Shown here piece after piece: positions 38,695-58,445 of a DNA stretch of 64,000 nt. The notes beneath the pieces were generated by a model. The model searched no databases. It was given only the letters and a program-made list of their open reading frames with translations, and was not told the DNA's origin. Position numbers and translations under genes: made by a program. Source of the DNA: an uncultured Planctomycetaceae bacterium (lineage in GTDB: Bacteria > Planctomycetota > Planctomycetia > Isosphaerales > Isosphaeraceae); contig CAWIAD010000002.1 of NCBI GenBank assembly GCA_963833985.1, forward strand, positions 4,640,001 to 4,704,000. The letters run 5' to 3'. The stretch's first letter is position 1. Each line of letters starts with the position of its first letter.

Positions 38695-41600
38695 TTAGAA
38701 TGGGGCGTAGGGTATGTGCTGTCGATTTAAGGACTTCCAGTAAATCTGGTACTTGAAGAAATCGCTCCAAAGACCGGAATTTCTCGCATATTTAGCCAGT
38801 TGTTCCGCCACATACTCGGCGTAGTGCTCCGGGTCGTAGCTTTGCCTGTTCGGGTAGGGCCTTACGTACGGATCGGGAACACCATGTTCGTAGTAATCAT
38901 GGTAACTCTCGTGGAGAAGTGTCTTAACTTGCTGGTTTGGATCCGTGTTGTAGAAAAAATCACTTGATAGATATAGTATTCCACGCTTAGCTCCGGCAAT
39001 GTTCTTTTGACTTGGATCGGAGTAAAGCCGAATCTGCATCTTCGACAGGTGCCCGACAAGGTCAGCATACATTCCCCCCTTATACTCGTCGGGAATTGTC
39101 ACCCAATTAACGGCGGCCATGGCCTGCACCAGCCTCGAGATGTACTGACGTTCGGCCTCGTTCAAAAGTTCGGAATTGGGCTGCGTTACTTTGTAAATCC
39201 CATAAACCACGTAGCTGTAGGCTCTTTCGTACCACGTCAGGTTCTGGCCGGATTGAACCTGTGTCGGAGACTGGTAGCATCCCGTCGGGTCAACGAATAA
39301 GGTTGTGCAGTTACTTACATATGCGTACAGATTTGGTAATTGATCGGATGATCCCAGTGGATCCTCTTGCACAAACCTACCTGCCATCGCCGAGTAGGAG
39401 CGTGCATGATCATAGTACTGCTCGATCGCCGCATCCCACTCCATGCCCGCGAACTTGAACCGATCGCCGTTGGAGCCCCCGCTGCTCTCGGAGAGGATAT
39501 TGCCGTAGCTGTCGTAGACGACGTGATCGATGCTCGTGCCGGACGTATTGACGATGTCGCGAACGCTTCCTAACCTGTCGGCCAGGTACCAGGCGGTTGT
39601 GCCGCCCGAGCTGGTGCGGGCGAAGAGCTCGTCGACGGCTGGGCCGGAGACATATCGCGTCAGTAATGTCCCTGAGCCGTTGAAGTCGGCGTAGGGGTTG
39701 GCGTCGGCGCCCTTTCCGTCGTACACGGTCCACATCTGAGTGCTGTTGGTGTCCACGCCGATGCGATGGTTCAGGGCATCATACGTATACGTTACCTGCT
39801 GGAGCGTCGTCCCGCCCGAATTCTTCTCCACGGCGCTTGTCATCCGGTTGCGATCGTCGTAGCCGAACGTCCAGACGTCGTGAGTCGAGAGCTGCGTCTC
39901 GCCGATCGTGTTGCCTTCCTTGTCGTACGTGAACGTGTAGCCGCCGCCGGAGCTCAACTCGTTGCCCGTGCCCGTGGTGTAGCCGGTCATGTTCCGGTTC
40001 CCACCCGAGTCATAGCTATAGTTTTCCGTCCGCGAGCCGCGGGCTGTCAGTAGTTCACCACCGGAGTCATAGCCGTACGTGACCGTCCCCTCGGCGTTGA
40101 CCTCGGTGGTCACGCGGTTGGCGTTGTCGTAGCCATAAACATACGTTGAGAGTGCCGTGCCGGTGCCCGTCTGGTCGGTGATCGTGCCGACACGGTTGGC
40201 CGGATCGTAGACGATCGAGGTGTTCACAGACGTGCCCGAGCCGCCGATGGTCCGCGAGATTGACGTCTCGCGGTTGCCCGGGTCGTACCCCAGCACCACC
40301 TGCGGGCCGGCGCTGCCGTTGTAGCTGGCCGAGATGGTCGTCAGCCGAAACGCAGGGTCGTACTGGAACGTCGTCACGCCGACATTCCCCGTGATGTTGT
40401 CCGTCAAGCTGGTGCGGTCGTGGTACGCGTCGTAACCGGAAGTCAATGTCACGCTCGGCTGGTGGCTGCCCGGACCCGACGTGGAGTCGGTGAGCTGGTT
40501 GCCACCCGAGTCATAGGTGAAGCTCAGGGTCGCGTAGTTATCCGTGATCTTGGTCAGCTCGTTATCGGCGTTGTAGGTGATCGTGATCAGGTTGGTCGTG
40601 CCGCCGGAGGCGCTGTACCAGGTCTCGCCAGTCTCCTGGCCTCCCAAGTCGTACGAGTACGTCACCACCCGGCCGTTGCGGTCGGTCGAGGCCGTGAGCT
40701 GGTCATCATAGTTGTACAGGTAGGTCGCCGTGTTACCCAGCGGATCGGTCATCGTGGTCAAACGGTCGGCCGAGTCGTAGCCCCAGGTCGTGTGGTTGCC
40801 CAGCGGATCGGTCAGAGTCGTCATCCTCCCGGCCGCGTCATAAGCCATGGTGGTGGTGTTGCCCAGCGGGTCGATGATCGTCGTGGCGCGGTTGTCGGCG
40901 TCGTAGAGCGTGGTCGTCACGTTCCCCAGCGCGTCCTTGACCGTCTGCTGGTTGCCGCCCGAATCGTAGCCGTAGACCGTGGTATGCCCCAGCGCGTCGG
41001 TCACGGTGGTCAACCGGTTCATCGTATCATAAGCATGTTGCGTCGCGTTGCTGTTAGCGTCGGTCATCCCCGTCATGTTGCCCACGCCGTCATAGACGTA
41101 GGTCGTGGTGTGGTTATTGGCGTCGGTGTAGGTGGTCAGCCGGTCGTCCTTGTCGTAATAGAACGATTGCGTCGAGCCCCCGCTGTGCCCGGGGTCCACC
41201 TCCGTCGATTCCTTGCCGGTGGGCGTGTAGGCGTAGGTCGTGATGTTCCCGAGGCCGTCCTCGACCGTCGCCACCCAGCCGCGGTAGTTGTACGCCGTCG
41301 TCGTGATCCGCCCCATCGGGTCGGCGACCTGGATCACCTGCCCCTCGGCGTCGTAGGTCGTGGTCGTCACCGCGTTGGCGCTGGCGGTCAAGGGGGCCGT
41401 GACCACCGTCGGACGGTTGAGGGCATCATACGATATGGACGTGATGCGGCTCATGGGATCGGTGATCTTGATCAGGTTGCCGCCCGAATCGTAACCGTAC
41501 ACCGTCACCCGCGACAGCGGCGCCGTGACGGTCACCGCGCGGTTCATCGCGTCGTAGGAGATGGTCGTCGTGCGCGCGACCTGAAGGGCCGGGGTCGGGT

Positions 41601-44600
41601 CCTGTTCGACGATCAAGTTGCCACCTGAATCGTAGACGTCGGTCGTCCGGTTCGTCAACGGGTCGGTCATGCCCGTCTCGCGGTTCATGGCGTCGTAGCT
41701 GTAGGTCGTCGTGTTCGACCGCTGGTCGGTGACTGACGTCACGTTCCCCTGGTTGTTGTAGCCGTGGAGCACCGTGGTGCCGTCGGGGTTCTGGACGGTG
41801 GTCGCCCGGTCCTGGCTGTCGTACTGAATGCTCGTGGTATGCCCGTTGGCATCCTTGAGCGTGGCCAGCATGCCGTCGCCGGTGTAGGTCATGGTCGTCA
41901 GGTTGCCCATCGGGTCCTGCGTGACCGTCAGGTTGCCGTGGGTATCGTAATCGTAGGTATAGACGTGGTTGTTGGCGTCGGTGAACTGGGTCACCTCGGC
42001 GAAGCTGTTGTAGCTGTACTGGTCGAAGTTCAGGTCGGGGTAGGTGTGCTGGGTGATGTTGCCCTTGCTGTCGTAGGCATACTGGTCGATGCGATTGAGC
42101 CGGTCGATGGTGACGGTGGCCAGGCCCATGGACGCGCCGCTGCCGATGCGGTCAGAGCTGGCCACGTTGCCCAGCGCGTCGACGGCCACGTCGGTCAAGC
42201 CCTGGCCGTTCCAGTCGGGGCGCAGTGTCGTGACGTTGCTGTTGGGGTCGGTATAGTTGCTGGTGGCGGTGGCCAGCGGCACGGCCGCGGTGCCGCCGCC
42301 GGAGGTGACGCTGCTGCTCAGGCCGGCCTCCTGGCTGGGGAAGAACTCCTCGGTGGTGCTGTTATCCGGCCGGGTAATCGTCGAGGCCCGCTCGGCGGAA
42401 TCGTAAGCGACCGTCACGGTCTTCGAGTTCGGGTCGGTCACCTGCGTCATGCGGCCCGAGCCGTCATAGGCATAACCCCAGGTCGAACTGTCGGGGAGGG
42501 TCGCGCCGGTGAGGCTGGATCCGCTGTGGGTGAGGGTGGTGAGCCGCCCGGCCGGGTCCTTGATCGTCTGCAAATATCCACCGCTGTATGAAAACGTCGT
42601 GGTGTTCCCATACGGGTCGGTGATGTTGGTGAGGTTACCGGAGCTGTACGAATACGTGATGTGCAACCCATTGGTGTCGATCGTGGCCGTCTCATGGCCA
42701 CCCGAATCGAAAGTGATCTGGGTGCCGTCTGTGAGGGTCCGTGTGTAGGTGCCGCCGGAGTTCTGCACCAGCGTGGAGAACTCGCCGGGCGGGTCCGTGA
42801 ACGTGCCGCCCCCGCTGCCGAAGCTGCCGCTGAACCAGAGGCTGCGGCCCCCGCTGCCCAGGTCGAGGATCATGCCGCCGGAGGCCGAGGTGATCTTCTC
42901 CAGGCCGGAGACCGACCAGCCGTTGCCGATGGTACTGGAGGAGTCGTTGAGCACCGACATCGTGCCGGTGAGGGTCGTGGTCGTGTTCGTGCTGCGGTAA
43001 TCAACCACGGTGGCCGTGTAGTTGTAGCGCCCGGTGCTCTGCCCGGTCATGTTCGCCTGAAGCGCCATCTGCTGGATGTCGCCGGCCATGAGCTGGCTGG
43101 TGTTATCGTACCAGGTCGAGCCGGTATAGACGGTGGTGCCGCCGGTGGTGGCCACAGAAATCTGGCCGCTGTCCTGGGACGGCAACGTCAGCGTGGGGCT
43201 GAGCGCATGCGGGATGTCGACGATCGGCCGTGGATCGGCGGTCAGCGAGTCATAGGTCAGGGCCACCGCGGGCACGTTGGGGTTGTAACTGGGCAGGTTG
43301 ATGCTGGTATCCAGCGCGCCGCTGGTGGCGTCGACCGACACGTTGTGGCTGACGAAGGCGGGCGCCTGGGGAAGCTCCAGATCCGGTGCCAGCGAGCCTG
43401 GCCAGGTCGGGTCGCCGCCACCGCTCATGCCCGAGCTGGACCCGGCGGGAACGAGGAAGTCATACGTGAACGTCTCGGTATGCGAGTTGGTATCGGTCAC
43501 CGAGAGCGTGACGCTGTTCACGCTGGGCGCGGGGTTGACGCTGCCGTTGCCCCAGGTGAAGGTCAGGTCGTAGCCGGTGGTTCCCGAGACGTGGTTGACG
43601 AGGGTGAGATGAGTCGTGTCCCAGCTGATCGAGCTGACCGTGGTGTTCTCCACCTGGGCGCGGAGATCGACGAACTTGTTGAACGTGGCCAGCTGGTAGG
43701 CGCCCGGGAACATCACCTCACCCTGCGTGTAATCGACCACGTACACGGGGAAATACGTGAACGACCCAAGGCTTGCCCCCGACGAGTTGCCGATCGTCGG
43801 GTCGATGTTGGGATTGATGCCGCCGCCGGAGCTCGACCCCGAGCTCGCCGGCGGTGGCGGCTGGGGTGGAATGGCGCTGGGAGGCGCACCGGCATGGGGC
43901 GGAGGTGAGGCGCCGGGCTCGGGGCTGCCGGCGCCCGGGTTGGGCGTTGGCGGGACAGTGGGCTGAGACGCGCTGGAGGCGGCTGCCAGCAGGGCGGAGG
44001 AGGCCGCCTGGTTGCTGCCGCTCGAACCCGGCGCGGGAACCTTCAGCGGCGTGATCGCGCCGCGGTTTGCAGTAGCCGCTGGCGCACTACCGCCGGCGCC
44101 TGTGCCCAGGTTGATCACCTGCCCGGCCCCCTGGCGCTGCGCCGGATGCCAGGGAGGCGTGATGCCTGTCTCACCGTTCGAGGCCGGGCTTTGCAGGGGT
44201 AGCAGGCTTAGCCAGTCGCCCGGCGCCGCTGGCGCCGGCACGATGGAGACGGGAACGAGGCCTTGTGCATTGCCCGCGCCGCCGGTTGTTCGCGGCCGCG
44301 CCGCGGCGGAGTTGAGAAAAGTCGCCGCTCGCGCCGTGGTGCCGGCGCTCGCGGGGGCATTCTGTCCAGGAGTTGCACCGCCTCCCCGGCCCGGCCGGGC
44401 CGCGGTGCCGGCAAGCTGCGCCTTGCTCGCCGCCGACAGACCCAGGAGGGAATCCAACCCCAGGGGCAGCCCCATGCTCAGCGCCGTCAGACTGATCGGT
44501 TCCGTGATCATTATCCGGAGCTCGCACTGTTCCAGGCGATCGAACTTCCTGGCCATGCGGGCACGTCTTCGCTCGGTGAAGCTGAGGCGGTGCTTGCTCA

Positions 44601-44658
44601 GGATGCGTTCCTTCGGCCCGGCGCGGACCGATCCCGTGGCCCACCGGGCCCGGTCCAT
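38695..44658 (-). CDS. Full-length Rhs/YD-repeat polymorphic toxin with a C-terminal HExxH (zincin-like) domain
   Basis: 1987 aa; many YD repeats; core DRLGSVR..GRFVQEDPLG..VDPTG; tip TLLHESYH; Pro/Ala/Ser-rich N-terminal linker. Confidence 0.95.
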   Translation of the reverse strand: MDRARWATGSVRAGPKERILSKHRLSFTERRRARMARKFDRLEQCELRIMITEPISLTALSMGLPLGLDSLLGLSAASKAQLAGTAARPGRGGGATPGQNAPASAGTTARAATFLNSAAARPRTTGGAGNAQGLVPVSIVPAPAAPGDWLSLLPLQSPASNGETGITPPWHPAQRQGAGQVINLGTGAGGSAPAATANRGAITPLKVPAPGSSGSNQAASSALLAAASSASQPTVPPTPNPGAGSPEPGASPPPHAGAPPSAIPPQPPPPASSGSSSGGGINPNIDPTIGNSSGASLGSFTYFPVYVVDYTQGEVMFPGAYQLATFNKFVDLRAQVENTTVSSISWDTTHLTLVNHVSGTTGYDLTFTWGNGSVNPAPSVNSVTLSVTDTNSHTETFTYDFLVPAGSSSGMSGGGDPTWPGSLAPDLELPQAPAFVSHNVSVDATSGALDTSINLPSYNPNVPAVALTYDSLTADPRPIVDIPHALSPTLTLPSQDSGQISVATTGGTTVYTGSTWYDNTSQLMAGDIQQMALQANMTGQSTGRYNYTATVVDYRSTNTTTTLTGTMSVLNDSSSTIGNGWSVSGLEKITSASGGMILDLGSGGRSLWFSGSFGSGGGTFTDPPGEFSTLVQNSGGTYTRTLTDGTQITFDSGGHETATIDTNGLHITYSYSSGNLTNITDPYGNTTTFSYSGGYLQTIKDPAGRLTTLTHSGSSLTGATLPDSSTWGYAYDGSGRMTQVTDPNSKTVTVAYDSAERASTITRPDNSTTEEFFPSQEAGLSSSVTSGGGTAAVPLATATSNYTDPNSNVTTLRPDWNGQGLTDVAVDALGNVASSDRIGSGASMGLATVTIDRLNRIDQYAYDSKGNITQHTYPDLNFDQYSYNSFAEVTQFTDANNHVYTYDYDTHGNLTVTQDPMGNLTTMTYTGDGMLATLKDANGHTTSIQYDSQDRATTVQNPDGTTVLHGYNNQGNVTSVTDQRSNTTTYSYDAMNRETGMTDPLTNRTTDVYDSGGNLIVEQDPTPALQVARTTTISYDAMNRAVTVTAPLSRVTVYGYDSGGNLIKITDPMSRITSISYDALNRPTVVTAPLTASANAVTTTTYDAEGQVIQVADPMGRITTTAYNYRGWVATVEDGLGNITTYAYTPTGKESTEVDPGHSGGSTQSFYYDKDDRLTTYTDANNHTTTYVYDGVGNMTGMTDANSNATQHAYDTMNRLTTVTDALGHTTVYGYDSGGNQQTVKDALGNVTTTLYDADNRATTIIDPLGNTTTMAYDAAGRMTTLTDPLGNHTTWGYDSADRLTTMTDPLGNTATYLYNYDDQLTASTDRNGRVVTYSYDLGGQETGETWYSASGGTTNLITITYNADNELTKITDNYATLSFTYDSGGNQLTDSTSGPGSHQPSVTLTSGYDAYHDRTSLTDNITGNVGVTTFQYDPAFRLTTISASYNGSAGPQVVLGYDPGNRETSISRTIGGSGTSVNTSIVYDPANRVGTITDQTGTGTALSTYVYGYDNANRVTTEVNAEGTVTYGYDSGGELLTARGSRTENYSYDSGGNRNMTGYTTGTGNELSSGGGYTFTYDKEGNTIGETQLSTHDVWTFGYDDRNRMTSAVEKNSGGTTLQQVTYTYDALNHRIGVDTNSTQMWTVYDGKGADANPYADFNGSGTLLTRYVSGPAVDELFARTSSGGTTAWYLADRLGSVRDIVNTSGTSIDHVVYDSYGNILSESSGGSNGDRFKFAGMEWDAAIEQYYDHARSYSAMAGRFVQEDPLGSSDQLPNLYAYVSNCTTLFVDPTGCYQSPTQVQSGQNLTWYERAYSYVVYGIYKVTQPNSELLNEAERQYISRLVQAMAAVNWVTIPDEYKGGMYADLVGHLSKMQIRLYSDPSQKNIAGAKRGILYLSSDFFYNTDPNQQVKTLLHESYHDYYEHGVPDPYVRPYPNRQSYDPEHYAEYVAEQLAKYARNSGLWSDFFKYQIYWKSLNRQHIPYAPF

Positions 44659-48545: not shown

Positions 48546-49553
48546 TTAGAAGGGCGGCTCGATCATCTCGGATCCCGACCTGGTCCCGAGCGCCTGCCAC
48601 ACCCGTGACGAGACCGTATTTGAAACCCAGTGGACAGCGCCGTCGGCTGTCGCAACACTTACTCCGCCCCTGTGCATGCTGCGGGCGGGATAGATGCCGG
48701 ACTCGGAACTCCCCATTGGTGGGAACTGTGCGTCCGCGCCGCCGCAATCAAACCACGCGCTGTTTGGTGTGAAAATGTGGTTGTACGAAGTCGTGTCGTA
48801 GCCGCATACCGCCCAGGACCAACCACCCGAGCAATAGAAGGAAGAAGAAGAGCCGGGCCCGCTCTGACACGCGGCAATCTCATCGCCGACAGATTGGTAC
48901 GCCCCGATGCCTGCCCTCCATGAATCGCGAGCCGGGTCCGGACGCCTGAGGTCGCCGGACCCGAGCAGCCGCTCCGAGAGCATGGCGGTCGTGGAGAGAC
49001 CATCGGTGACCTGCGCCGGGCTCACCCACTGGTAGATCTCGAACACCCCCAGCCGATTCACCTCCTGCGGGGACGGGAACGTGCCAATCTGCGAGCCCAT
49101 GCAGACTCTATAATCTACCGGCCCATTCGGCGTGGGCGACGGATTGCCGTCGGAGGGGCACAGGAATACCGAGAGGGTTACAGACATGAACGTCGCCTGC
49201 TCTGGCCACGACTCCGTGCCCGCCGACTGCCCGGACTGAAAGTTGATGGAATCGAAAATGGGCCTCAGCTCGAGATCGGCCAGTACGTGAGTGAACGCCG
49301 AGTAATCATTGCCGCGAAAGGTCGCCGTGGGGAGCTGGATGGGCATTCCCTGAGCTGGAAACCTCCCCTCCCGGGTCTGGTAAGAGTGCATGGCCAGCGT
49401 GATCTGCCGCAGGTTGTTGACGCACTGCGCCACTCGTGCCGATTCCCGGACCGCCTGCACCGCTGGCAACAGAAGAGCGATCAACAGCCCCAGAACCAGA
49501 ATCACGACCAGCGTTTCGACGAGGGTCAATGCAGAGCAAGGACGCAGTCTCAT
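48546..49553 (-). CDS. DUF1559 prepilin-like protein with H-X9-DG motif
   Basis: ALTLVETLVVILVLGLLIALLLPAVQAVRESARVAQCVNNLRQI, FLCPSD, VTDGLSTT, SMHRGGVSVATADG. Confidence 0.93.
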   Translation of the reverse strand: MRLRPCSALTLVETLVVILVLGLLIALLLPAVQAVRESARVAQCVNNLRQITLAMHSYQTREGRFPAQGMPIQLPTATFRGNDYSAFTHVLADLELRPIFDSINFQSGQSAGTESWPEQATFMSVTLSVFLCPSDGNPSPTPNGPVDYRVCMGSQIGTFPSPQEVNRLGVFEIYQWVSPAQVTDGLSTTAMLSERLLGSGDLRRPDPARDSWRAGIGAYQSVGDEIAACQSGPGSSSSFYCSGGWSWAVCGYDTTSYNHIFTPNSAWFDCGGADAQFPPMGSSESGIYPARSMHRGGVSVATADGAVHWVSNTVSSRVWQALGTRSGSEMIEPPF

Positions 49554-49566
49554 TCCACTCGTATGG

Positions 49567-50633
49567 CTATTCTCGATTCTCACCGCTTTTGCCCTCCGGA
49601 AAGCTCGGAGTCCAGCCCTTGATCAGCAGAGGTACATTGAAGCTGGTTGCCTCCGAGGCGGACAGCTCAACGGAAAGCGTCCCCATGGCATCGCCGCTCC
49701 CCGACGGAAACATGAGGTCGAAATCGAGGGTCGCGAGTCCATCTCCGGCCTTGGTGGCAGACAGGTTTGTCAGGACCCACGGAGGTGAAGTCGTGATTGA
49801 CCTCGCGACCAAAGTGTCGCCCGGGGAACTGGACCTCACCAGCAGCTTGCGGTGGATGATGCGCCCGATGTCGTCCTTGTCGACCTCAATCTGAGAAGGA
49901 GTGCATTGGAACGGACCGGAGACCGTCACAGTGAACGGAATCATAACGAGGAAGGCCTTCTCGTCGTCGGTTACGATATAAATGGTCCCACGGTGGACAC
50001 CGAGCGCCCGTCCCGCACGAAATATCACAGAAACTCTGTGAAACTGGAGACTAACGTCGGCGCTCTCAGCCGTCGCGTCGATGTCGGGGACGTCAGTCGT
50101 GATGTTCTTGATCGTGAAGTCCTTTTTCCCCGGCGAGTAGACCTCGACAATCCACGTTCTGTTCTGTCCGAGAGGGATTTCTCCAGCATCAATCGCCTCC
50201 GGCGACGTCCGCAACCCTAACCACCCCTCGGCGAAAAGGTGGATCTCGGTACGGGGCGCGCGGGGTCGTTGGCGTCGATCGATACGAAGTGCTGCACGTT
50301 CGCGGGGGCCGGCGGGAGATCGAACTCGACTTTCAGGTCAGTGCTCTCTCCGGGTGCAAGTGACGAAACCAAGAGATGGGGCCTGGTGCACCCGCATGAT
50401 GACCCAACTTTGTCAAATACTAGGGCTGCTGAACCTTGATTACTGATACGAAACACTTTTTCCAAATGGGAGCCAGGCGGGTGTTTTCCCCAGTTCCACG
50501 AGTCCCGGTCGAGCACCATTCTGGGACTGCCCGGGCGCTTGGCCCCAACCGAAACCGCCCAGATTGATAGCAGGAGGCAAAGGGAGCCAACCGCGAACAA
50601 TGCGGATAACAGGTGCCGCTTGGAGCCGAGCAT
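49567..50633 (-). CDS. DUF1573 / Ig-like repeat protein (frameshift ~50255)
   Basis: N-terminal TM; FRISNQG..SSCGCT..LAPGES; joins ORF 49567-50214 via PRTEIHLFAEGWLGLRTSPE. Confidence 0.82.
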
Positions 50634-50675
50634 TGTGACCTCACCGATGGAGCTTGGAGCGCAGGTCGGCCGCCG

Positions 50676-51212
50676 TCAGCTGCCTGACGCGCCCCCGGTC
50701 ACCCGCGCGATTCCGCCAATCACGATCGCCTCGCCTCCCCACACACCCGCCAGCGCACGCCAGGAGAGACGCCTGGGTTCGGATGGAGGGTCGAGAACGA
50801 TAACAGTTCCGTCCGCGCAGGGGAACGCCGCCACGAAGTGCGTCCCACTGACGAAGAGGATCATGGGTTCGCGGGGGCGGCCAGGGTTGCTCGGATCAAA
50901 GCGAAGCGCCCGTGCCGAAAAGTCGCGCTCGCGCAGCGCCCTCAGAATGTCGGTGAACGAGCAAAATCCGTTCTCGCCGAGCCGGACCATGTCGCGTGCT
51001 TCCGCGAGGCCGACGGGACGCCCCAGGTAACCGGTCACGGCAGCGATGCAGACCGGACCGCAGCTTTCCTCCGTCCTCGTGCGTTGGTTGAACATCAAGG
51101 CAGCCCCAGCGGGCCCGCCGCGTCCGCGCAGGCCGACGACGAATCCAAGCGCCAGGACACCGCCCGTGAGAAGCGCAAGCAGGTCCGCGCGTCGTAGCGT
51201 TCGCCCGAGCAT
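50676..51212 (-). CDS. Stand-alone C39 cysteine peptidase with an N-terminal membrane anchor
   Basis: ESCGPVC (Cys), GTHFV (His), VLDP (Asp), WGGEAIVI; no ABC domain; RR plus hydrophobic N-terminus. Confidence 0.85.
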   Translation of the reverse strand: MLGRTLRRADLLALLTGGVLALGFVVGLRGRGGPAGAALMFNQRTRTEESCGPVCIAAVTGYLGRPVGLAEARDMVRLGENGFCSFTDILRALRERDFSARALRFDPSNPGRPREPMILFVSGTHFVAAFPCADGTVIVLDPPSEPRRLSWRALAGVWGGEAIVIGGIARVTGGASGS

Positions 51213-51351
51213 GTCGAAGCGATCCTTTTCCGGGTTGAGTTGTACAAGTCATCGCGGCACCGATGTCACCGCATCCGGCTGTCCTCGTCCTGCCAGCTCA
51301 TGCGCCCGACGGCTCCCCATTTGCCATGACGGCATCGACGTAGGGCACGAG

Positions 51352-52440
51352 TCAGCGGTGGGAGGTGTGATCTCTCCAGCGGACCGCGGCCACGACCGCG
51401 GCGACGAGGAGCAGCGCCCCCACGGCCGCAAGAGCCCAGGCTGCGAGGGCTGGGCTCACTGTGAAAGGCCCAGGTTTCCCTCCATTCGACTCGGTGTCCG
51501 AGAGCTCGGACTGGAGCTTCTTGATCTTCTCGATCTGAGCGCTAATGGAGCTGTCAGTCACTCGCTTCACAACGAACGCAGGCCCCCCCTTGATCTTGTC
51601 GGAGAGAAGCGTGCCGTCAGGAAAGTCGAGCTGGAACGTGTCGGGCTTGAGCGTCCGGTTCACCGCCCAGTCGGTGAGGTCCAGTGTGAACTCGTGCATG
51701 AGCTCATAACCACCGTCGTCGTAGTACCCGTGACTGACATGGTGGACCTGCGACGGGACCCAGAGCGGCCCGTAGCGGACAAAGCCTTTGCTCTTGGTTT
51801 CGTGCCCGGGCTTCCAGTCGAGGCCTGCCTTGGGACGAAAGCTGGTGATGTTGCTAACAACCGCGAAGCCGTAGGAGGGCGCAACCAGGATGCTGCCTCT
51901 AAACAGGCTCCCGTCGGGCAGCGCGTGACTTGACTCCCAGATCAATTCCACGACCCGAGTCCCCTCCGCCTCCCCGGTACTCCCCATGTTGAGCGGCACT
52001 TCCTCGTAGAACTTGGGCACCGACCAGGTGTTCAGGTTCAGCAGCTCAGCAGGCTGGGCGGGCAGAGGTACGCCCAGTTCCCGACGCCTCGTTCCGGTGA
52101 TCCCATACTTACCTCCAGCCGGCTCCTTCTCGACGGTGATCGACCTGTACTCCTTGTCAATAACGATGATCTCGTGGGAGCCAGACTTATCGAGTTGCTC
52201 GATCCGTTTACGGTCCGAACGATCCAGCAGAAACTTGAATTGTTGGACATACTCTTTCAGAGGAGCGCCCCTGATAATCCTGCGCTGACCGTGGGCCTCG
52301 GCCTGAAACTGGAGGTTCTGGAAGGCGGCCTGGCGCGCCAACAAACCCGCCTTGATCTCGTCGAGGGTGTAGTCAGCCTTCGGATCTTCGAACGTCCCCG
52401 CACTAATAGCAAGGATGCAGACCAGTAGCCAAGCAACCAT
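51352..52440 (-). CDS. Exported hypothetical protein (LolA-like beta fold suspected) with a C-terminal TM anchor
   Basis: GGAGAGGAG RBS; signal peptide; WVP..VNRTLKPDTFQLDFPDGTLLSD; C-terminal hydrophobic helix followed by RWR. Confidence 0.7.
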   Translation of the reverse strand: MVAWLLVCILAISAGTFEDPKADYTLDEIKAGLLARQAAFQNLQFQAEAHGQRRIIRGAPLKEYVQQFKFLLDRSDRKRIEQLDKSGSHEIIVIDKEYRSITVEKEPAGGKYGITGTRRRELGVPLPAQPAELLNLNTWSVPKFYEEVPLNMGSTGEAEGTRVVELIWESSHALPDGSLFRGSILVAPSYGFAVVSNITSFRPKAGLDWKPGHETKSKGFVRYGPLWVPSQVHHVSHGYYDDGGYELMHEFTLDLTDWAVNRTLKPDTFQLDFPDGTLLSDKIKGGPAFVVKRVTDSSISAQIEKIKKLQSELSDTESNGGKPGPFTVSPALAAWALAAVGALLLVAAVVAAVRWRDHTSHR

Positions 52441-52766
52441 GACGCACTCCTCTCCGAAAAAGAGCCGCCGGGTCACGGGCATGGAACAAGCAGGGTTCTT
52501 AGCTTAGAGCCCTTCTCGATTCCCGCGATGCATTGCGGTCGAAGCCTGGCTCGAACAGTTCACCCCACATCGCCGCTCGTTTGGGGCGGCCGCCCGCCTC
52601 CGGTCCGTCGAGAGCGGTCGACACAGGCGCCGTAGGCCAGGCTCGCCGATCGTCGACATGCGCCATGGTGACGTTCGTCGGATACGCCATCCGTGGGGGC
52701 CTGGGCGACGGTCCTTCCAGCGTCCAACCCGTCCAGTTGTGGCGCGCTCGGCCCCGGAACGCGTCG

Positions 52767-53213
52767 TCAATGAATCATATCGCAGTCGTATAGCTCGGCA
52801 CCACACTGCTGCGAGTTTCCGTTCAGGCAGCTTGCGGGGCAACCGTTCGGGCCCGGGGCTGTGGAATAAACTGTCCCGCAGAGCTGTTTTTTGTCGGTTT
52901 GCGTGCATCCCATCGGGAAAGTCTGAGTCGGGTTGTTGCAGAGGAACTGGCTCATGGTCACCAGCGAGTAGCAAGTGCCTCCGTAGTTTACGCAGAAGAA
53001 GGTGTAATTGCCACACGCCGGATTGCCTTGGGTGCCGCACACGTCGCTCTTGCACATGCAGTTCTGGTTCATGTGCATGCACTCACCGCCAATGATCCCG
53101 AGACACTCCTTCTCGCTCATCGGAATGGGGGCATGGGAGGAACCGTCTGCCGTGATGGGCACGAGCAAGCAGACCGTCACGACGAGGGCTGCTGCGAGCA
53201 TTGCAAATCGCAT
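52767..53213 (-). CDS. Secreted Cys-rich precursor: signal peptide, double-glycine-type leader, 105-aa core with 14 Cys
   Basis: GGAGAG RBS; MRFAMLAAALVVTVCLLVPITADG; PMSEKECLGIIGG|ECMH.. Confidence 0.8.
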   Translation of the reverse strand: MRFAMLAAALVVTVCLLVPITADGSSHAPIPMSEKECLGIIGGECMHMNQNCMCKSDVCGTQGNPACGNYTFFCVNYGGTCYSLVTMSQFLCNNPTQTFPMGCTQTDKKQLCGTVYSTAPGPNGCPASCLNGNSQQCGAELYDCDMIH

Positions 53214-53316
53214 TGTTGCTCTCCCGTAGGGGGTTGCCGGACCGCAGGAACGGGGCCCGTCGCGCAAGACCGGGTCTCACGTTGGTGGTCGCGGCGACGT
53301 CCGTGAGTTTTGGACA

Positions 53317-53359
53317 TGACGCATTCTGCGTCAAGCTACCCCCCCCCCAGATAAGTCAA
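53317..53359 (-). promoter_or_regulatory. Promoter with a poly-G spacer and an adjacent perfect palindrome
   Basis: Minus strand TTGACT-TATCT-G10-TAGCTT; TGACGCA-TTC-TGCGTCA at 53317-53333. Confidence 0.6.
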
Positions 53360-53482
53360 GAAAAAATTTGAATAATGAAATCCCCAAATCCCCGCTACCC
53401 TTTTGCGGGAAGTAGGTTTGTCGTAGGGGACGTAAAGCCAAGGCGAAGCGGTCCGGTCCGCCAAAGACGCACGCGACGTGAG

Positions 53483-55282
53483 CTAAGGTGTCGGGCCGAT
53501 TCGGGCCGGCCGAACGTTATTCCTCCCGGGTAGCACCACCAGCCGGTACCTGGGCGCGGGGCCGCGCTGGCCTTCTCGATCCGGCCCCGCTTCAGGCGGT
53601 GCAGCCAGCCGCGCGTCGCCCAGGCGGAGCGCACCAGCCCGGCCTGGCCGAAGAGCTGGTACATGATGCGGAACTTCCAGAGGGCATCGACGGTGAGGAC
53701 CGCCTTGAGTGCCCGCAGCGGATTGTAGAAGCACGCGTAGGCGATGAGTATATTGATCTGCTTGCGCCAGGGATGCCGGCTCCGGCTGGCAATCGTGTGG
53801 TTGCCGTCGAACTGGTAATCGGCGACATCCAGGCTGCCGACCCGGCTCATCACCTGGCCTTCCTCGAACGTCCGCTTGTACGCCTTCGAGCCGACCATGG
53901 GCGTCAGGAATGTGATCTGCACGCTCACCGCCCCGGCGCGCTTGAGGTACTGGATCTGGTTGAGCAGGCCAGCCAATCCCCGGCGCGAGACCAGCGGCTG
54001 GTCGTCGTGGTGCATCATCATCGGCATCGGTGCAATGCCGTGGTCCAGCAAATTGCGGAATACCTTGCGCGTCTTCTCGGGGCTCTGGCCCTTCTTGACC
54101 AGCTCGGCGGTCATGTCCTCGATGCCGAACCAGATCGCCCGGATGCCGGCGTCGCGTGCCAGCGGCATGAGGTCGGCGCAGCGGTCGACGTCGTGCTCGG
54201 TCCCCTCGGTGCCAATCCACACCGAATCGCGGAACGGCCGGCCGGCGATGGTGCCGCGGGCCATGGTCGTCAGGATCGATCCGGCGGCCTCATGATTGTT
54301 GAAGAAGTTGTCGTCTGTCCCGAAGAAGCTGTCGATCCCCGTGCGCTCGACCATGCCGGAGATCTCCGCCGCCAGCCGATCCGGGCCGCGGAAGCGGAAG
54401 GTGCCCTGGTTGTAGGCGTGGATCGGGCAGTAGGGACAGTGAAACTTGCAGCCGTGCGTCATGATCAGCGGCAGGATCCTGGCGTGGCGCCGCAGGCGGT
54501 CGGCGGGGACCGGCCGGTCGTCGAGCCCCTCCTGGCGATGCGGCCGCTCGAACATCCCCAGGGCGTCAAAGGGGAACGGCAGCTCGTCCAGGTCTTGCAC
54601 CAGGCGCTGGGTGCCGGTGTTCACCAGCTCGCTCACGTGACCGCCTTGCGGATCGCGGCGGTAGACCAGGCCGGGAATGTCCTCCAGCGCGCCCGCGGGC
54701 CGGGCTCGCTCGAACGCTTGCCGCCAGCTCTCGTGGAAGCCCTTGAACTCCAGGAGCCGGTCCAGCAGCTCCAGAAGCACGAATTCCTCACCCGTCACCA
54801 CCAGGTCCGCCCCGCGCTGGCCGTCCGGGCCCAGGCCGAAGAAGTCCCATGGCTCGTAGATCGCCTTGGCTCCGCCAGCCAGGATGAGCGGGCGATCCGC
54901 GCCGCAGCGCATGGGCGTCCTCGATGAGCCGGTAGGCCGAGGCGCTGTGGATCTGCATGCTCGAGACGAGCAACAGCTCAGGGGGCCGGCCGCCCAGCCG
55001 TGCCTGGCTGGGCCGGAAACGAGGATTCCACTGCTGGAGCACAACGCGGATGTTGCGGAAGCCGGCGCCCGCCAGCGCGGACGGCACGGCCAGGGGTGCA
55101 CCCGGGATGAGCTGCGTGTCCACGAACACGAACGGCCCCAGGCGGGTGCGCTGGTCGAAGGCGTTGACATGGAGCACCGGTGTCTCACCGGCCGCAACAC
55201 CGCTTCGAATCTGGCGTTCTAACTCCTGGTAACGACCCGGCCGGGTGAACTGGTCACCCTTCGGACGCCCTGGCAATTCCAT
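53483..55282 (-). CDS. B12-binding-type radical SAM protein (frameshifts ~54905, ~53550)
   Basis: THGCKFHCPYC (CxxxCxxC), FGTDDNFF, WFGIED; N-terminal LLVSSMQIH..ILAGG..DLVVTGE. Confidence 0.88.
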
Positions 55283-55406
55283 GGCTGCCGCTCGCAACTT
55301 CTTGTTGACGTTGTGTTTCCATCGTGAGGTCCGGTCTTTTCAGCGGAGATCGTCCCGGAACGGTCTCGGCTCGGCGCAGCTCCCCGCACGCAAAGCTCTG
55401 CCATCC

Positions 55407-55622: not shown

Positions 55623-57122
55623 TCATAGTTTCGATCCGAGATGCGGTGCCGGCCGGGGTCCGGGCGCGGTCTGGGCGACGTGCCTGTGCGCGGCGGCGGT
55701 GGTCGCCGCGTGGCCGGTCCCGATGGACCTGGCCCCCCTCCTGCCGTGACGGCTGGGGCGGTGGGGGTGTCTGCCCACGGGCCTGGGGGTGGGGGTGGGA
55801 GTGGGAGTGGGAGACGGGGTGGGAGTTGTCCCGCCGGCTCCGGTTCCCGTGACCGGTGTCAGTGGCGTGGTCAGAGTGCTCGACACCAGGTCGCTCGCCA
55901 GGGCCGGCCCGTTGGGCGAGCCCAGGCCGGTCGCCGTGTTGGCCCCGATCGAGCTCCCGGTCGTGGAGTTCGAGCTGGAATTCAAGGACCAGCCGCCGAA
56001 GTACCAGGACCAGGAGGTGGAGCTGAAACTGCCGAAGCCGCCGCCGAACTGGAAGAAGCCTGCTCCGAACCCCATGCCGGTTCCCGCGGCAGCGGCCGCG
56101 ACGGTGTGGAAGATGGACGAGGGGGCCGCGTAGAGCGCCGGAAGCGTCTGTGTGGGTCCGTCCAGGCTTCCCATGCCGTCAGCCGCACGTCCCTGGTCGA
56201 CGATGGCGATGATCCCCGCCCAGGCGGGAGTGCCCAGGCTCGTGCCGCCGACGGTGAACCACGAGCCCTGGCTGCCGAAGCGGGTGGGCGTGGTCACGTA
56301 AACCGGTACGCCGGTGCTCGGGTCGCCGTCGAAGGCGACGTCGGGGGTGGCCCGGCTGCCGGTGGTCTGAACCTTCGCCTGGTAGCTGGGCTCGGGCTCG
56401 TATGGGCTATATCCCCCTCCGCTGCCGGACCAGGCCGCTTCCGACTGGTACGCCCCCGCGCTGGTCAGCAGCAGTGTGGTGCCGCCGACCGAGAGCACTT
56501 TTGGTGATGCGGCCGGGTACGACGCGCCCGCCATGACGCCATTGTCGCCGCTGGCGGCGATGAAGGTGACCCCGGCGTGGCCGGCGGGCGTTGTGAAGAT
56601 AAAATCGTAGGCGGTTTCGCCGGGCGTTTCACCAAACCCCCAGCTCATCGACACGGCTACCACTCCCGGCACGTTTCGCGCCAGGTTCACGGCTGCCATG
56701 AGGTCAGAGAGGTTCTGCGTGCTGGCCTCCACGACCAGCAGGTTCGCCCCCGGTGCGACGGCGTGGGCCCATTCCACGTCGAGCGCCTCTTCCTGGGTCC
56801 AGCCGCTGTTGGCCGGCGTCGAGGAGCTGACTGCGCCGCCCGTCTGGTTGACCACGGTAAGCTTCGGGTCGGGAAGACCATACGCCTGATCGAAGGTGTG
56901 CAGGTCCGAGCTGATCGTGGGATCGTGATACGCTTCGATGAGAGCGATCGTCTGGCCGCTCCCATCGCCCTTGACCGTGGTTCCGGACGACGTGGTGAAG
57001 GCGATGGAATTCAGTCCGTAGGCGGACGTCAACTGGGCCGGAGTCAGGGTCGAGAGCAGGCAGCGGTCATCGAGCGCATCGATTTGCGGCCTGAGGCGCA
57101 AACCGCGACGGCGGTTTCTCAT
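55623..57122 (-). CDS. S53 (sedolisin/kumamolisin) peptidase with a LEPR-xLL-like N-terminus and no pro-domain
   Basis: EEALDVEWAH, ASGDNG, TPDVAFD, GGTSLG; N-terminus RRRGLRLRPQIDALDDRCLLS; PT-repeat tail. Confidence 0.9.
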   Translation of the reverse strand: MRNRRRGLRLRPQIDALDDRCLLSTLTPAQLTSAYGLNSIAFTTSSGTTVKGDGSGQTIALIEAYHDPTISSDLHTFDQAYGLPDPKLTVVNQTGGAVSSSTPANSGWTQEEALDVEWAHAVAPGANLLVVEASTQNLSDLMAAVNLARNVPGVVAVSMSWGFGETPGETAYDFIFTTPAGHAGVTFIAASGDNGVMAGASYPAASPKVLSVGGTTLLLTSAGAYQSEAAWSGSGGGYSPYEPEPSYQAKVQTTGSRATPDVAFDGDPSTGVPVYVTTPTRFGSQGSWFTVGGTSLGTPAWAGIIAIVDQGRAADGMGSLDGPTQTLPALYAAPSSIFHTVAAAAAGTGMGFGAGFFQFGGGFGSFSSTSWSWYFGGWSLNSSSNSTTGSSIGANTATGLGSPNGPALASDLVSSTLTTPLTPVTGTGAGGTTPTPSPTPTPTPTPRPVGRHPHRPSRHGRRGARSIGTGHAATTAAAHRHVAQTAPGPRPAPHLGSKL

Positions 57123-57473: not shown

Positions 57474-58445
57474 TTATTCGCCAGGCTTGCCGCGTGAATC
57501 GGTCACCGAAGCCCAGGGCGGAAAGTCCAGCTCGAACGAGCCGGGAGGAGTGGCCATGTTCACCTTCACATCCGAGATCGTGATCTGATCGATCGTCTTG
57601 TCGAAGAGGTTGACCCGGCGGATGGTCCTGGGAAACCAGTAGCCGTCCACTTCCTGGAGTTCATAGTCAGCGCGCGCCCAGGGAGCCTCTGGAGTTCCGT
57701 TCTGCCAGGTGGCGCGGAGCACCGCGTCCTTGTGTGGATCGTAGACAACGACGATCGTGCTCTCTCCGTCGCGCTCGGGAACCGAGATCGTCCAGAGGCC
57801 GTGGTCCTCGTTGATCGTGGGCCTCCGGTTCGACCTGAGTCCCGTCCGGATCAGGCCGGAGAGCCGCTCGCCCAGATGACACGGCGGCATCTCGCCGAGA
57901 CCGCAAACGAGACGGAAGGAGTGGAACTGGCTGTTCTCCTGGCCGGGCCGGTAAAGCCGGCCTCGACCCGGGTCATCCCCGCGCTGGGGTGGAACTCGGG
58001 GCAGCGTCTTGCCAGGCGCGGTGTAGTTCAGGTCGCGGCAGAAGAGGCCGTCGAACGACCAGGTGTTCCGCTCCGCGACGTGGTCGTTGATGCCCTGAAC
58101 CCACCGCATCACCGAGTCCAGGTCCACGCGGTAGCGGCCGGAGAAGTGCTCGATCATGACTTGCCCGTGGTGCCGGACCGGTCCAAAGCTCGCCTTTTCC
58201 GGGCGAGCCGGGTCCTCGACCTTCCCCTGGCGGAAATCCACGGTCCAGCGCAGCGCCTGGACCCGGGGCTCCTGTGCCTCGATCGTTGCCAGTGCCTTGT
58301 TGACGTCGATGTCGCTGCCTGTACCGGTGCCGGCGCCGGCTGCGGCCGGCAGACCCAGGCATGCCGCGGATAGCAGGTAAGAAGAATAGAGCAGGTAAAG
58401 AAGAATGGCGCTGGGCCGTACGCTTCTCGGGTCTGGAGTCGGCAT
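57474..58445 (-). CDS. Exported hypothetical protein related to 51352-52440
   Basis: Signal-like N-terminus; WFP..VKVNMATPPGSFELDFPPWASVTD. Confidence 0.7.
   Translation of the reverse strand: MPTPDPRSVRPSAILLYLLYSSYLLSAACLGLPAAAGAGTGTGSDIDVNKALATIEAQEPRVQALRWTVDFRQGKVEDPARPEKASFGPVRHHGQVMIEHFSGRYRVDLDSVMRWVQGINDHVAERNTWSFDGLFCRDLNYTAPGKTLPRVPPQRGDDPGRGRLYRPGQENSQFHSFRLVCGLGEMPPCHLGERLSGLIRTGLRSNRRPTINEDHGLWTISVPERDGESTIVVVYDPHKDAVLRATWQNGTPEAPWARADYELQEVDGYWFPRTIRRVNLFDKTIDQITISDVKVNMATPPGSFELDFPPWASVTDSRGKPGE

Follow-up and report, generated by a model that had tools for sequence, protein, structure and literature searches.

In a 64,000-nucleotide stretch of the genome of an uncultured Planctomycetaceae bacterium (G000:C2:4640001-4704000, hereafter the window, G000 being its genome), we analyzed a cassette of five co-oriented minus-strand genes encoding, in order, a Cys-rich secreted precursor, an exported protein of LolA-superfamily fold, a stand-alone C39 peptidase, a DUF1573 protein with Ig-like domains, and a DUF1559 pilin-like protein. 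The cassette represents a real, repeated system. Taken as a whole, and at a probability of roughly 0.55, it would produce a variable disulfide-bonded miniprotein that is processed by a periplasmic C39 peptidase, displayed by way of a pilin, and switched on and off by homopolymer tracts.

The layout recurs in G000 and across relatives and is not a product of chance. In a family-level survey, 52 of 81 genomes gave a match to PF03412 (C39), proteins fused to an ATP-binding cassette (ABC) transporter included, and 60 of the approximately 97 matches that did not look ABC-fused were fetched, favoring loci with flanking sequence. Among the 61 C39 loci (L005 included), DUF1559 was found at 48, the LolA-fold protein at 46, DUF1573 at 39, and a precursor, picked by a rule blind to the double-glycine (GG) motif, at 39. 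For a control set, DUF1573 was searched in 26 well-assembled genomes and 58 regions were fetched among the matches listed, leaving out top-scoring DUF1573 proteins that resembled housekeeping paralogs. Across the phylum, the C39 profile had matches in 56 of 151 genomes (again with ABC-fused proteins included); of 20 loci with a short C39 open reading frame (ORF), 8 carry a Cys-rich secreted ORF with at least 6 Cys, 3 of these lying outside the window's class, and 12 do not. G000 itself holds four C39 cassettes, one of them without a precursor, and six C39-less cassettes with a secreted Cys-rich protein, and the two types thus coexist in one genome. The unit is a four-gene core (Cys-rich protein, LolA-fold protein, DUF1573, and DUF1559), with the C39 peptidase and GG leader as an optional module. 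A preliminary description of this locus had taken the leader and peptidase as defining parts, and both are absent from the cassettes with the 41 leaderless precursors described below; the co-occurrence of C39, DUF1573, DUF1559, and Cys-rich genes that it proposed to look for does recur across relatives, but a fixed gene order was rejected, as order varies among loci, the LolA-fold gene usually standing next to the precursor.

Leader and peptidase vary together. We assembled 107 distinct precursors, picked without reference to GG, and scored C39 as present when it lay within 6 kb. An a priori leader rule, G-[GAS] with hydrophobic-type residues at -4 and -7, was satisfied by 48 of 66 precursors near a C39 gene versus 2 of 41 without one (Fisher p 8e-13, a value that is overstated because the cassettes are related). 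The median spacing from the signal to the first core Cys is 42.5 aa with C39 versus 26 aa without, and a stricter graded score on the canonical positions, devised after the sequences were seen, was reached by 48/66 versus 0/41, with shuffles giving a mean of 2.65 and a maximum of 8. The consensus is [LV] at -12, [LA] at -7, [IVL] at -4, G at -2, and [GAS] at -1. In the window, the segment between the hydrophobic N terminus and the core reads DGSSHAPIPMSEKECLGIIGG and has the make-up of a double-glycine leader (M-12, C-7, I-4, then G, G); the ortholog in L036 has TPSDCIAILGG, and orthologs keep the leader while their cores are only about 30% identical. In the 41 precursors of C39-less cassettes the core mostly starts directly after the signal; the expectation that homologous precursors would carry the GG motif holds for most of those near C39 and fails for nearly all others. 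Because such leaderless versions occupy C39-less cassettes, the GG segment would be a removable pro-peptide and not an export signal. When mapped on a quickly computed tree of 79 DUF1559 proteins from cassettes, the C39 label requires 7 changes (shuffled mean, 26), at least 2 of them forced by strong branches; because several changes are needed, the C39 module and the leader were probably switched together more than once. The mature N terminus of leaderless proteins is often A|DEPL, a motif shared by L072, L073, L076, L077, L086, and L093 and found further in L096, L098, L113, L114, and L116. A locus of another family but the same class (L127:4622-5590) has two tandem precursors with near-textbook leaders, LSLDQLQAVTGG and LSFEQLHAITGG.

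The window's peptidase matches PF03412 with an E value of 1.6e-14 and 54.3 bits against a cut-off of 22, and across 33 aligned C39 sequences the catalytic Cys and Asp are invariant and the His is kept in at least 90%. Against the PDB, the family profile best matched the LahT protease (6mpz, E 5e-21) and also matched 4ry2 (E 3e-18). A hydrophobic signal or anchor is present on 54 of 65 C39 ORFs; at 11 loci C39 is fused to DUF1573, ten of these fusions being joined through one or two predicted transmembrane (TM) segments, and at one locus it is fused to the LolA-fold protein, an arrangement consistent with a periplasmic orientation of both domains. Within 6 kb of 63 cassettes, some of them cut by contig ends, no pair of Walker A and signature motifs of an ABC ATPase was found; a separate gene of the type of peptidase-containing ABC transporters (PCATs) lies on contig C1 of G000. 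A metagenome scan with the window's C39 as query gave no matches. Tandem C39-C39 proteins of approximately 400 aa dominate the top profile matches (L020, L021, L033; P0002-P0105), and in L020 and L021 the second domain is without the catalytic Cys.

Modeling of the C39 peptidase with its leader, as the preliminary description had proposed, places the residues at -12, -7, and -4 and the GG motif at the active site. The predicted complex scored 0.66 versus 0.02 for the best control, on a scale whose mark is attained by 116 of 157 pairs with solved structures and by 2 of 215 mismatched ones; contacts agreed between runs by at least 73%, the partner's predicted local distance difference test (pLDDT) score was at least 60, M-12, C-7, and I-4 take part in the best contacts, and the catalytic Cys and His lie in the interface together with GG. 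This success may reflect memory of the solved LahT and PCAT1 complexes, and the model may show likeness only, because like complexes have been solved (6mpz, 6v9z). FapD of Pseudomonas is a periplasmic stand-alone C39 peptidase needed in an export operon, with an unknown target and no canonical leader (PMC5557850); the signals or anchors and fusions of the cassette peptidases are consistent with the same compartment. The cassette C39 could likewise act on the LolA-fold protein, DUF1573, or a host protein, with the precursor's GG incidental, and one C39 cassette does have no precursor. We consider this highly improbable: leader presence and spacer length track C39, the leader is conserved between orthologs whose cores diverge, and the complex model pairs the two.

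The window's precursor contains 16 Cys, 14 of them in the core. Across the family the cores are hypervariable (107 cores fall into 77 clusters), rich in G, C, T, S, N, and P, and have a median length of about 100 aa; 86 of 99 contain an even number of Cys. Even counts, together with a DsbB gene in the host genome, fit disulfide formation; VKOR was not found in G000. Sequence searches for close homologs of the window's precursor and LolA-fold protein returned self and one short match only; in the Atlas the precursor had no match and the LolA-fold protein matched unnamed Planctomycetota clusters only.

No Pfam or NCBIfam match was obtained for the exported second protein, and its assignment comes from an AlphaFold2 (AF2) model (pLDDT 74) that matched 3buu in Foldseek (E 7e-6) and, best of all, LolA3 (9tp6; Z 13.6, root mean square deviation 3.4, 183 aligned residues), with top Z values of 13.6, 13.2, and 12.9 for LolA-superfamily proteins. 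The label LolA-like given earlier thus holds at the level of fold, because the model matches LolA-superfamily proteins, and does not imply a carrier function. A second exported protein in the window (57474-58445, minus strand) weakly matches the LolA-fold profile (E 2e-3) and has neither a C-terminal TM segment nor cassette partners. The DUF1559 protein has a predicted prepilin-type cleavage site, SA|LTLVE, at 49529, a C-terminal H-X9-DG motif, and a weak match to PF07963 (E 0.0065). Its AF2 model (pLDDT 82) begins with a 52-residue helix (residues 6-57), and of 24 fold matches 22 are pilins, all weak (best Z 4.7), with no Foldseek match at E <= 0.001; a class III signal and a long N-terminal helix are the marks of pilin-like proteins. 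G000 also carries 3 secretins, 11 T2SSE matches, and 2 prepilin peptidases. MucB is among the matches of the LolA-fold protein (Z 7.0), and the cassette might accordingly serve periplasmic sensing or lipid handling, the LolA-fold protein being a lipid carrier or a protein like RseB/MucB and the Cys-rich protein a retained ligand or chaperone. This is improbable, since no regulator clusters among the recurring cassette neighbors, most cassettes contain a pilin, and hypervariable cores and homopolymer tracts point to selection from outside.

Upstream of the window's precursor, the sequence runs TTGACT-TATCT-G10-TAGCTT and continues into a palindrome, TGACGCA-3 nt-TGCGTCA, that occurs as a single exact copy in the genome. 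The single shared promoter claimed earlier has this candidate, read by eye, in its favor and the lack of a listing in an automated scan against it. The G10 tract, which the preliminary description had missed and which adds a candidate homopolymer switch to it, is the only homopolymer run of at least 9 in the window. Spacer tracts like it occur in L013, L014, L036, L039, and L060, and 6 of 31 precursor-first cassettes, the ortholog L036 included, have a TTGA hexamer followed by such a run, 8-17 long. Runs of G/C also lie near the 5' end of DUF1573: 38 of 74 cassette-leading DUF1573 genes have one of 8-14, compared with runs of at least 8 in 1 of 42 inner and 3 of 22 solitary DUF1573 genes and a G000 background of 32 in 5081 genes. 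A crude test put the signal in a frame other than that of the domain for 27 of 42; in L052, L151, and L165, from fragmented and likely short-read assemblies, it lies in another frame across the run, and in L160 it is in frame. Long-read errors affect the lengths of such runs, not their presence. Homopolymers at a functional place and enriched across homologs are what is seen at phase-variable loci, and the runs suggest a phase-variation switch. The Neisseria porA promoter has a poly-G run in its -35/-10 spacer (PMC3899988), and frameshifting poly-C/G tracts near the 5' end are found mostly in surface-protein genes (PMC3711429); the cassettes show both placements, but their hosts are free-living planctomycetes and switching is here predicted from sequence. 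In L005 (G000:C2:3293300-3307200) two closely related C39 cassettes stand in tandem, and in both of them a C10/C11 run puts the signal of DUF1573 out of frame.

We propose the following scheme. The precursor would be exported by Sec and lose its signal, would form seven disulfides by host Dsb, in keeping with the even Cys counts and DsbB, and would be cut after IIGG by the membrane-anchored C39 peptidase with loss of the pro-segment, as co-variation, the intact triad, and the complex model indicate; these three steps are likely. The LolA-fold and Ig proteins may then hand the mature protein to a pilin-based surface structure, for display or release through the host type IV pilus or type II secretion system machinery with the cassette's own DUF1559 pilin. 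This step is put forward tentatively, at somewhat less than even odds, and the role of the mature protein is the least supported part of the scheme. Surface display or release is favored because most cassettes bring a DUF1559 pilin and the host encodes secretins along with assembly ATPases and prepilin peptidases, and because hypervariability and contingency tracts suggest outside selection. Finally, slippage of the G/C runs would probably toggle each cassette on and off.

The main rival concerns that mature protein. In a polymorphic antibacterial system the core would be a released toxin, the LolA-fold protein its immunity protein, and the pilin and Ig proteins the means of delivery; core hypervariability, the LolA-fold gene that usually adjoins the precursor, the island-like and patchy occurrence of the cassettes, and the typical association of GG leaders with bacteriocins (PMC10885120) would all suit it. 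We nevertheless consider it unlikely. The cores are neutral to acidic, with a median net charge of -3 (the selection filter limited Arg), and in Pfam, NCBIfam, and model searches they matched no bacteriocin or toxin family; among leader segments, 1 of 42 matched a model of peptides that are made by ribosomes and modified after translation (RiPPs) at E < 0.001. A cassette switched off would also expose the cell to its siblings, and phase variation mostly concerns surface structures (PMC3711429). The earlier idea of a bacteriocin- or RiPP-like maturation pathway moved to the periplasm accordingly keeps its processing half, through leader-C39 co-variation, anchored peptidases, and the lack of an ABC partner, but sits poorly with such cores.

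Several observations weigh against the proposed scheme of processing, display, and switching. For processing, the a priori rule is not satisfied by 18 of the 66 precursors near a C39 gene, the C39 cassette at C2:212.9-215.8k of G000 is the one without a precursor, and six held-out precursors, which come from metagenomes and belong to one clade, retain G at -2 but have S, S, R, R, R, and L at -1, only 1 of the 6 reaching the strict score. The N-in/C-out topology of the window's C39 is itself a prediction. C39 peptidases such as those of ComA and PCAT1 usually place their oxyanion Gln six positions ahead of the catalytic Cys, and this Gln is not conserved in the cassette C39s. For switching, 25 of 31 precursor-first cassettes and about half of the leading DUF1573 genes have no tract; among held-out DUF1573 loci a tract was found only in L180, a near-copy of L151 that shares the same G12 without a change in length; and the sole length difference between identical flanks, C10 versus C11, may be an assembly error because it lies among paralogs of one metagenome-assembled genome. 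In the window, finally, the DUF1573 gene is broken by a one-base frameshift near 50253-50256 into pieces of 138 aa and 215 aa.

Apart from this break, which the preliminary description had missed in counting five genes, the window's cassette agrees with that description: gene order and orientation, a precursor with a signal, an IIGG leader, and exactly 14 core Cys, an exported protein with a C-terminal TM segment, a membrane-anchored C39 without an ABC part, and a prepilin-type start on DUF1559 were all recovered, and four of the five ORFs are intact (Table 1). Both DUF1573 pieces align to a single 360-aa ORF in L036, an orthologous cassette with the same gene order, and the family match is to PF07610 (E 1.4e-14). 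The frameshift is possibly an assembly error, or else a real lesion; an indel error is plausible because 4 of 38 conserved orthologs are likewise split in this assembly, and two public DNA runs have no reads over either the frameshift or the G10 tract. A phase switch at this position was rejected, as it sits at a 4-base run. That the family is real and the window's copy silent or decaying would account for the frameshift and for the short 15-nt promoter spacer, and G000 does have remnant cassettes beside transposases; given the plausible indel error and the otherwise intact ORFs and C39 triad we regard it as decidedly improbable, and it is compatible with the scheme preferred for the family. 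The cassette looks like an acquired island because four of its five genes fall in the lowest 2-6% of codon fit and because four relatives with 1.5 kb of sequence past the conserved flanking gene have other genes at the site. The 290 nt that follow the precursor are structurally unremarkable (z -0.75).

Table 1. Features of the cassette, in window coordinates.
Feature	Position	Strand	Remarks
Candidate -35 hexamer TTGACT	53354..53359	-	A/T-rich tract before it; read by eye
G10 homopolymer in -35/-10 spacer	53339..53348	-	15-nt spacer in the assembly; candidate tract for phase variation
Candidate -10 hexamer TAGCTT	53333..53338	-	Predicted from sequence
Perfect 7-bp inverted repeat, candidate operator	53317..53333	.	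Over likely start site
Cys-rich pre-pro-protein, 148 aa	52767..53213	-	L036 ortholog E 5e-10; without Pfam/NCBIfam family
Precursor, predicted signal (residues 1-22)	53213-53148	-	Hydrophobic N terminus
Precursor, double-glycine-type leader (residues 23-43)	53147-53085	-	Ends MSEKECLGIIGG (IIGG)
Precursor, core, 105 aa, 14 Cys	53084-52770	-	Begins ECMHMNQ
Exported LolA-superfamily-fold protein, 362 aa	51352..52440	-	C-terminal TM at 51450-51382; AF2 and fold matches
Stand-alone C39 peptidase, 178 aa	50676..51212	-	PF03412; N-terminal TM residues 11-28
C39 triad Cys51, His125, Asp141	51062-51060, 50840-50838, 50792-50790	-	Conserved
DUF1573 multi-Ig protein, 5' piece (signal/anchor and first Ig domain)	50217..50633	-	PF07610; 42% identity to L036 residues 33-138
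DUF1573 protein, 3' piece (second frame, further Ig-like repeats)	49567..50214	-	37% identity to L036 ORF residues 151-356
DUF1559 (SBP_bac_10) prepilin-like protein	48546..49553	-	PF07596 E 2.3e-32; open frame from 49583

The system resembles double-glycine processing but falls outside PCAT systems, class II bacteriocins, and Fap. With PCATs and the equivalent ABC transporter maturation and secretion proteins (LahT, PCAT1, ComA) it shares a C39 domain with Cys-His-Asp and a leader with hydrophobic residues at -4, -7, and -12 before GG, GA, or GS, the positions named for LahT in PMC10885120. It differs in that the C39 is neither fused to nor clustered with an ABC transporter and bears its own signal or anchor, and in that the leader does not act as an N-terminal export signal: a hydrophobic Sec-type signal precedes it, the core is about 100 aa, and homologous cassettes are leaderless. 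Size, charge, and the lack of a family match likewise separate the cores from the small cationic class II bacteriocins and microcins. With Fap, where such a peptidase is needed in an export operon, it shares a stand-alone C39, the cassette peptidase being predicted from sequence to be periplasmic; Fap substrates are Asn/Gln amyloid repeats without a canonical leader, with FapF as outer-membrane pore, whereas in the cassette a Cys-rich protein bears a canonical leader, the partners are LolA-fold, Ig, and pilin proteins, and a gene for a pore was not seen; no amyloid-repeat or FapF-type family was found among the five genes or recurring neighbor clusters. Because FapD is known (PMC5557850), a periplasmic stand-alone C39 alone is not new, which qualifies the earlier statement that no characterized system has this layout; for the cassette itself, our literature searches, from which subscription papers were mostly beyond reach and which did not cover supplements, found no description. 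Planctomycete proteins with N_methyl and SBP_bac_10 (DUF1559) domains are reported as expanded and often flanked by signal-peptide genes (PMC8567305), with no Cys-rich, C39, DUF1573, or LolA cassette in the available part of that paper, nor is this cassette described in the available parts of PMC8939145 and PMC5352709.

Further genes were noted around the cassettes. A subset of C39 cassettes only (L008:5613-6956, L020, L025, L028, L031, L033, L037, L042) encodes a protein of approximately 400 aa with conserved His, Glu, and Trp and a faint match of the squalene-cyclase QW type (E 0.001); in four of these cassettes a PMT-like glycosyltransferase is encoded as well, and both are possible core-modifying enzymes. 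TPR-sulfotransferase genes lie downstream of the C39-less cassettes L094, L095, L099, L103, L105, L110, and L113. MauE was rejected as a regular member, being found in L064 by Pfam with one more motif match among 63 cassettes, and an analogy to Bacteroidota NVEALA/DUF1573 was set aside, as PF14055 matched nothing, controls included. In the window, a radical SAM gene just upstream of the cassette (53395-55297, minus strand; B12-type NCBIfam matches below cut-off) is apparently split over two frames, is present in 1 of 5 relatives searched, and shows no sign of cassette membership. A 499-aa ORF (55623-57122, minus strand) has a planctomycete-type N-terminal motif, no Pfam match, and motifs that we take to be subtilase/sedolisin-like. 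A 1987-aa Rhs/YD-repeat protein (38695-44658, minus strand) with a short low-GC C-terminal region lies within a stretch of about 17 kb; because this stretch parts two genes that are adjacent in relatives, the region looks like an insertion hotspot.

These cassettes offer a testable role for three families of unknown function, namely DUF1559, DUF1573, and the planctomycete LolA-fold family, and they also offer periplasmic C39 peptidases, called uncharacterized in PMC5557850, a defined class of substrates. The natural contrast between cassettes with and without C39 shows a GG leader used apart from ABC export; free C39s could serve as the leader-removal tools wanted by a RiPP review (PMC10885120), and in the cores there is a rich stock of disulfide scaffolds of bacterial origin. 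That contingency tracts are conserved in free-living planctomycetes suggests selection acting on the cell surface, whether by phage, predators, kin, or substrate recognition. A broader view, which we hold possible while leaning slightly against it, is that these bacteria keep disulfide miniproteins displayed on pili as a phase-variable repertoire, with about ten cassettes in each genome, every one of which would combine a hypervariable ligand with a DUF1559 pilin, an Ig adaptor, and a LolA-fold loader of its own and be toggled by a G/C tract, and that in one branch double-glycine processing of the bacteriocin type was brought into the periplasm to serve as an activation step. Eukaryotic pre-pro cystine-rich peptides such as defensins and conotoxins join a signal, a removable pro-segment, and a hypervariable disulfide core, an analogy of layout for which no homology is claimed. 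If true, the repertoire would be a bacterial counterpart of these peptides and would explain what part of the large DUF1559 expansion is for.

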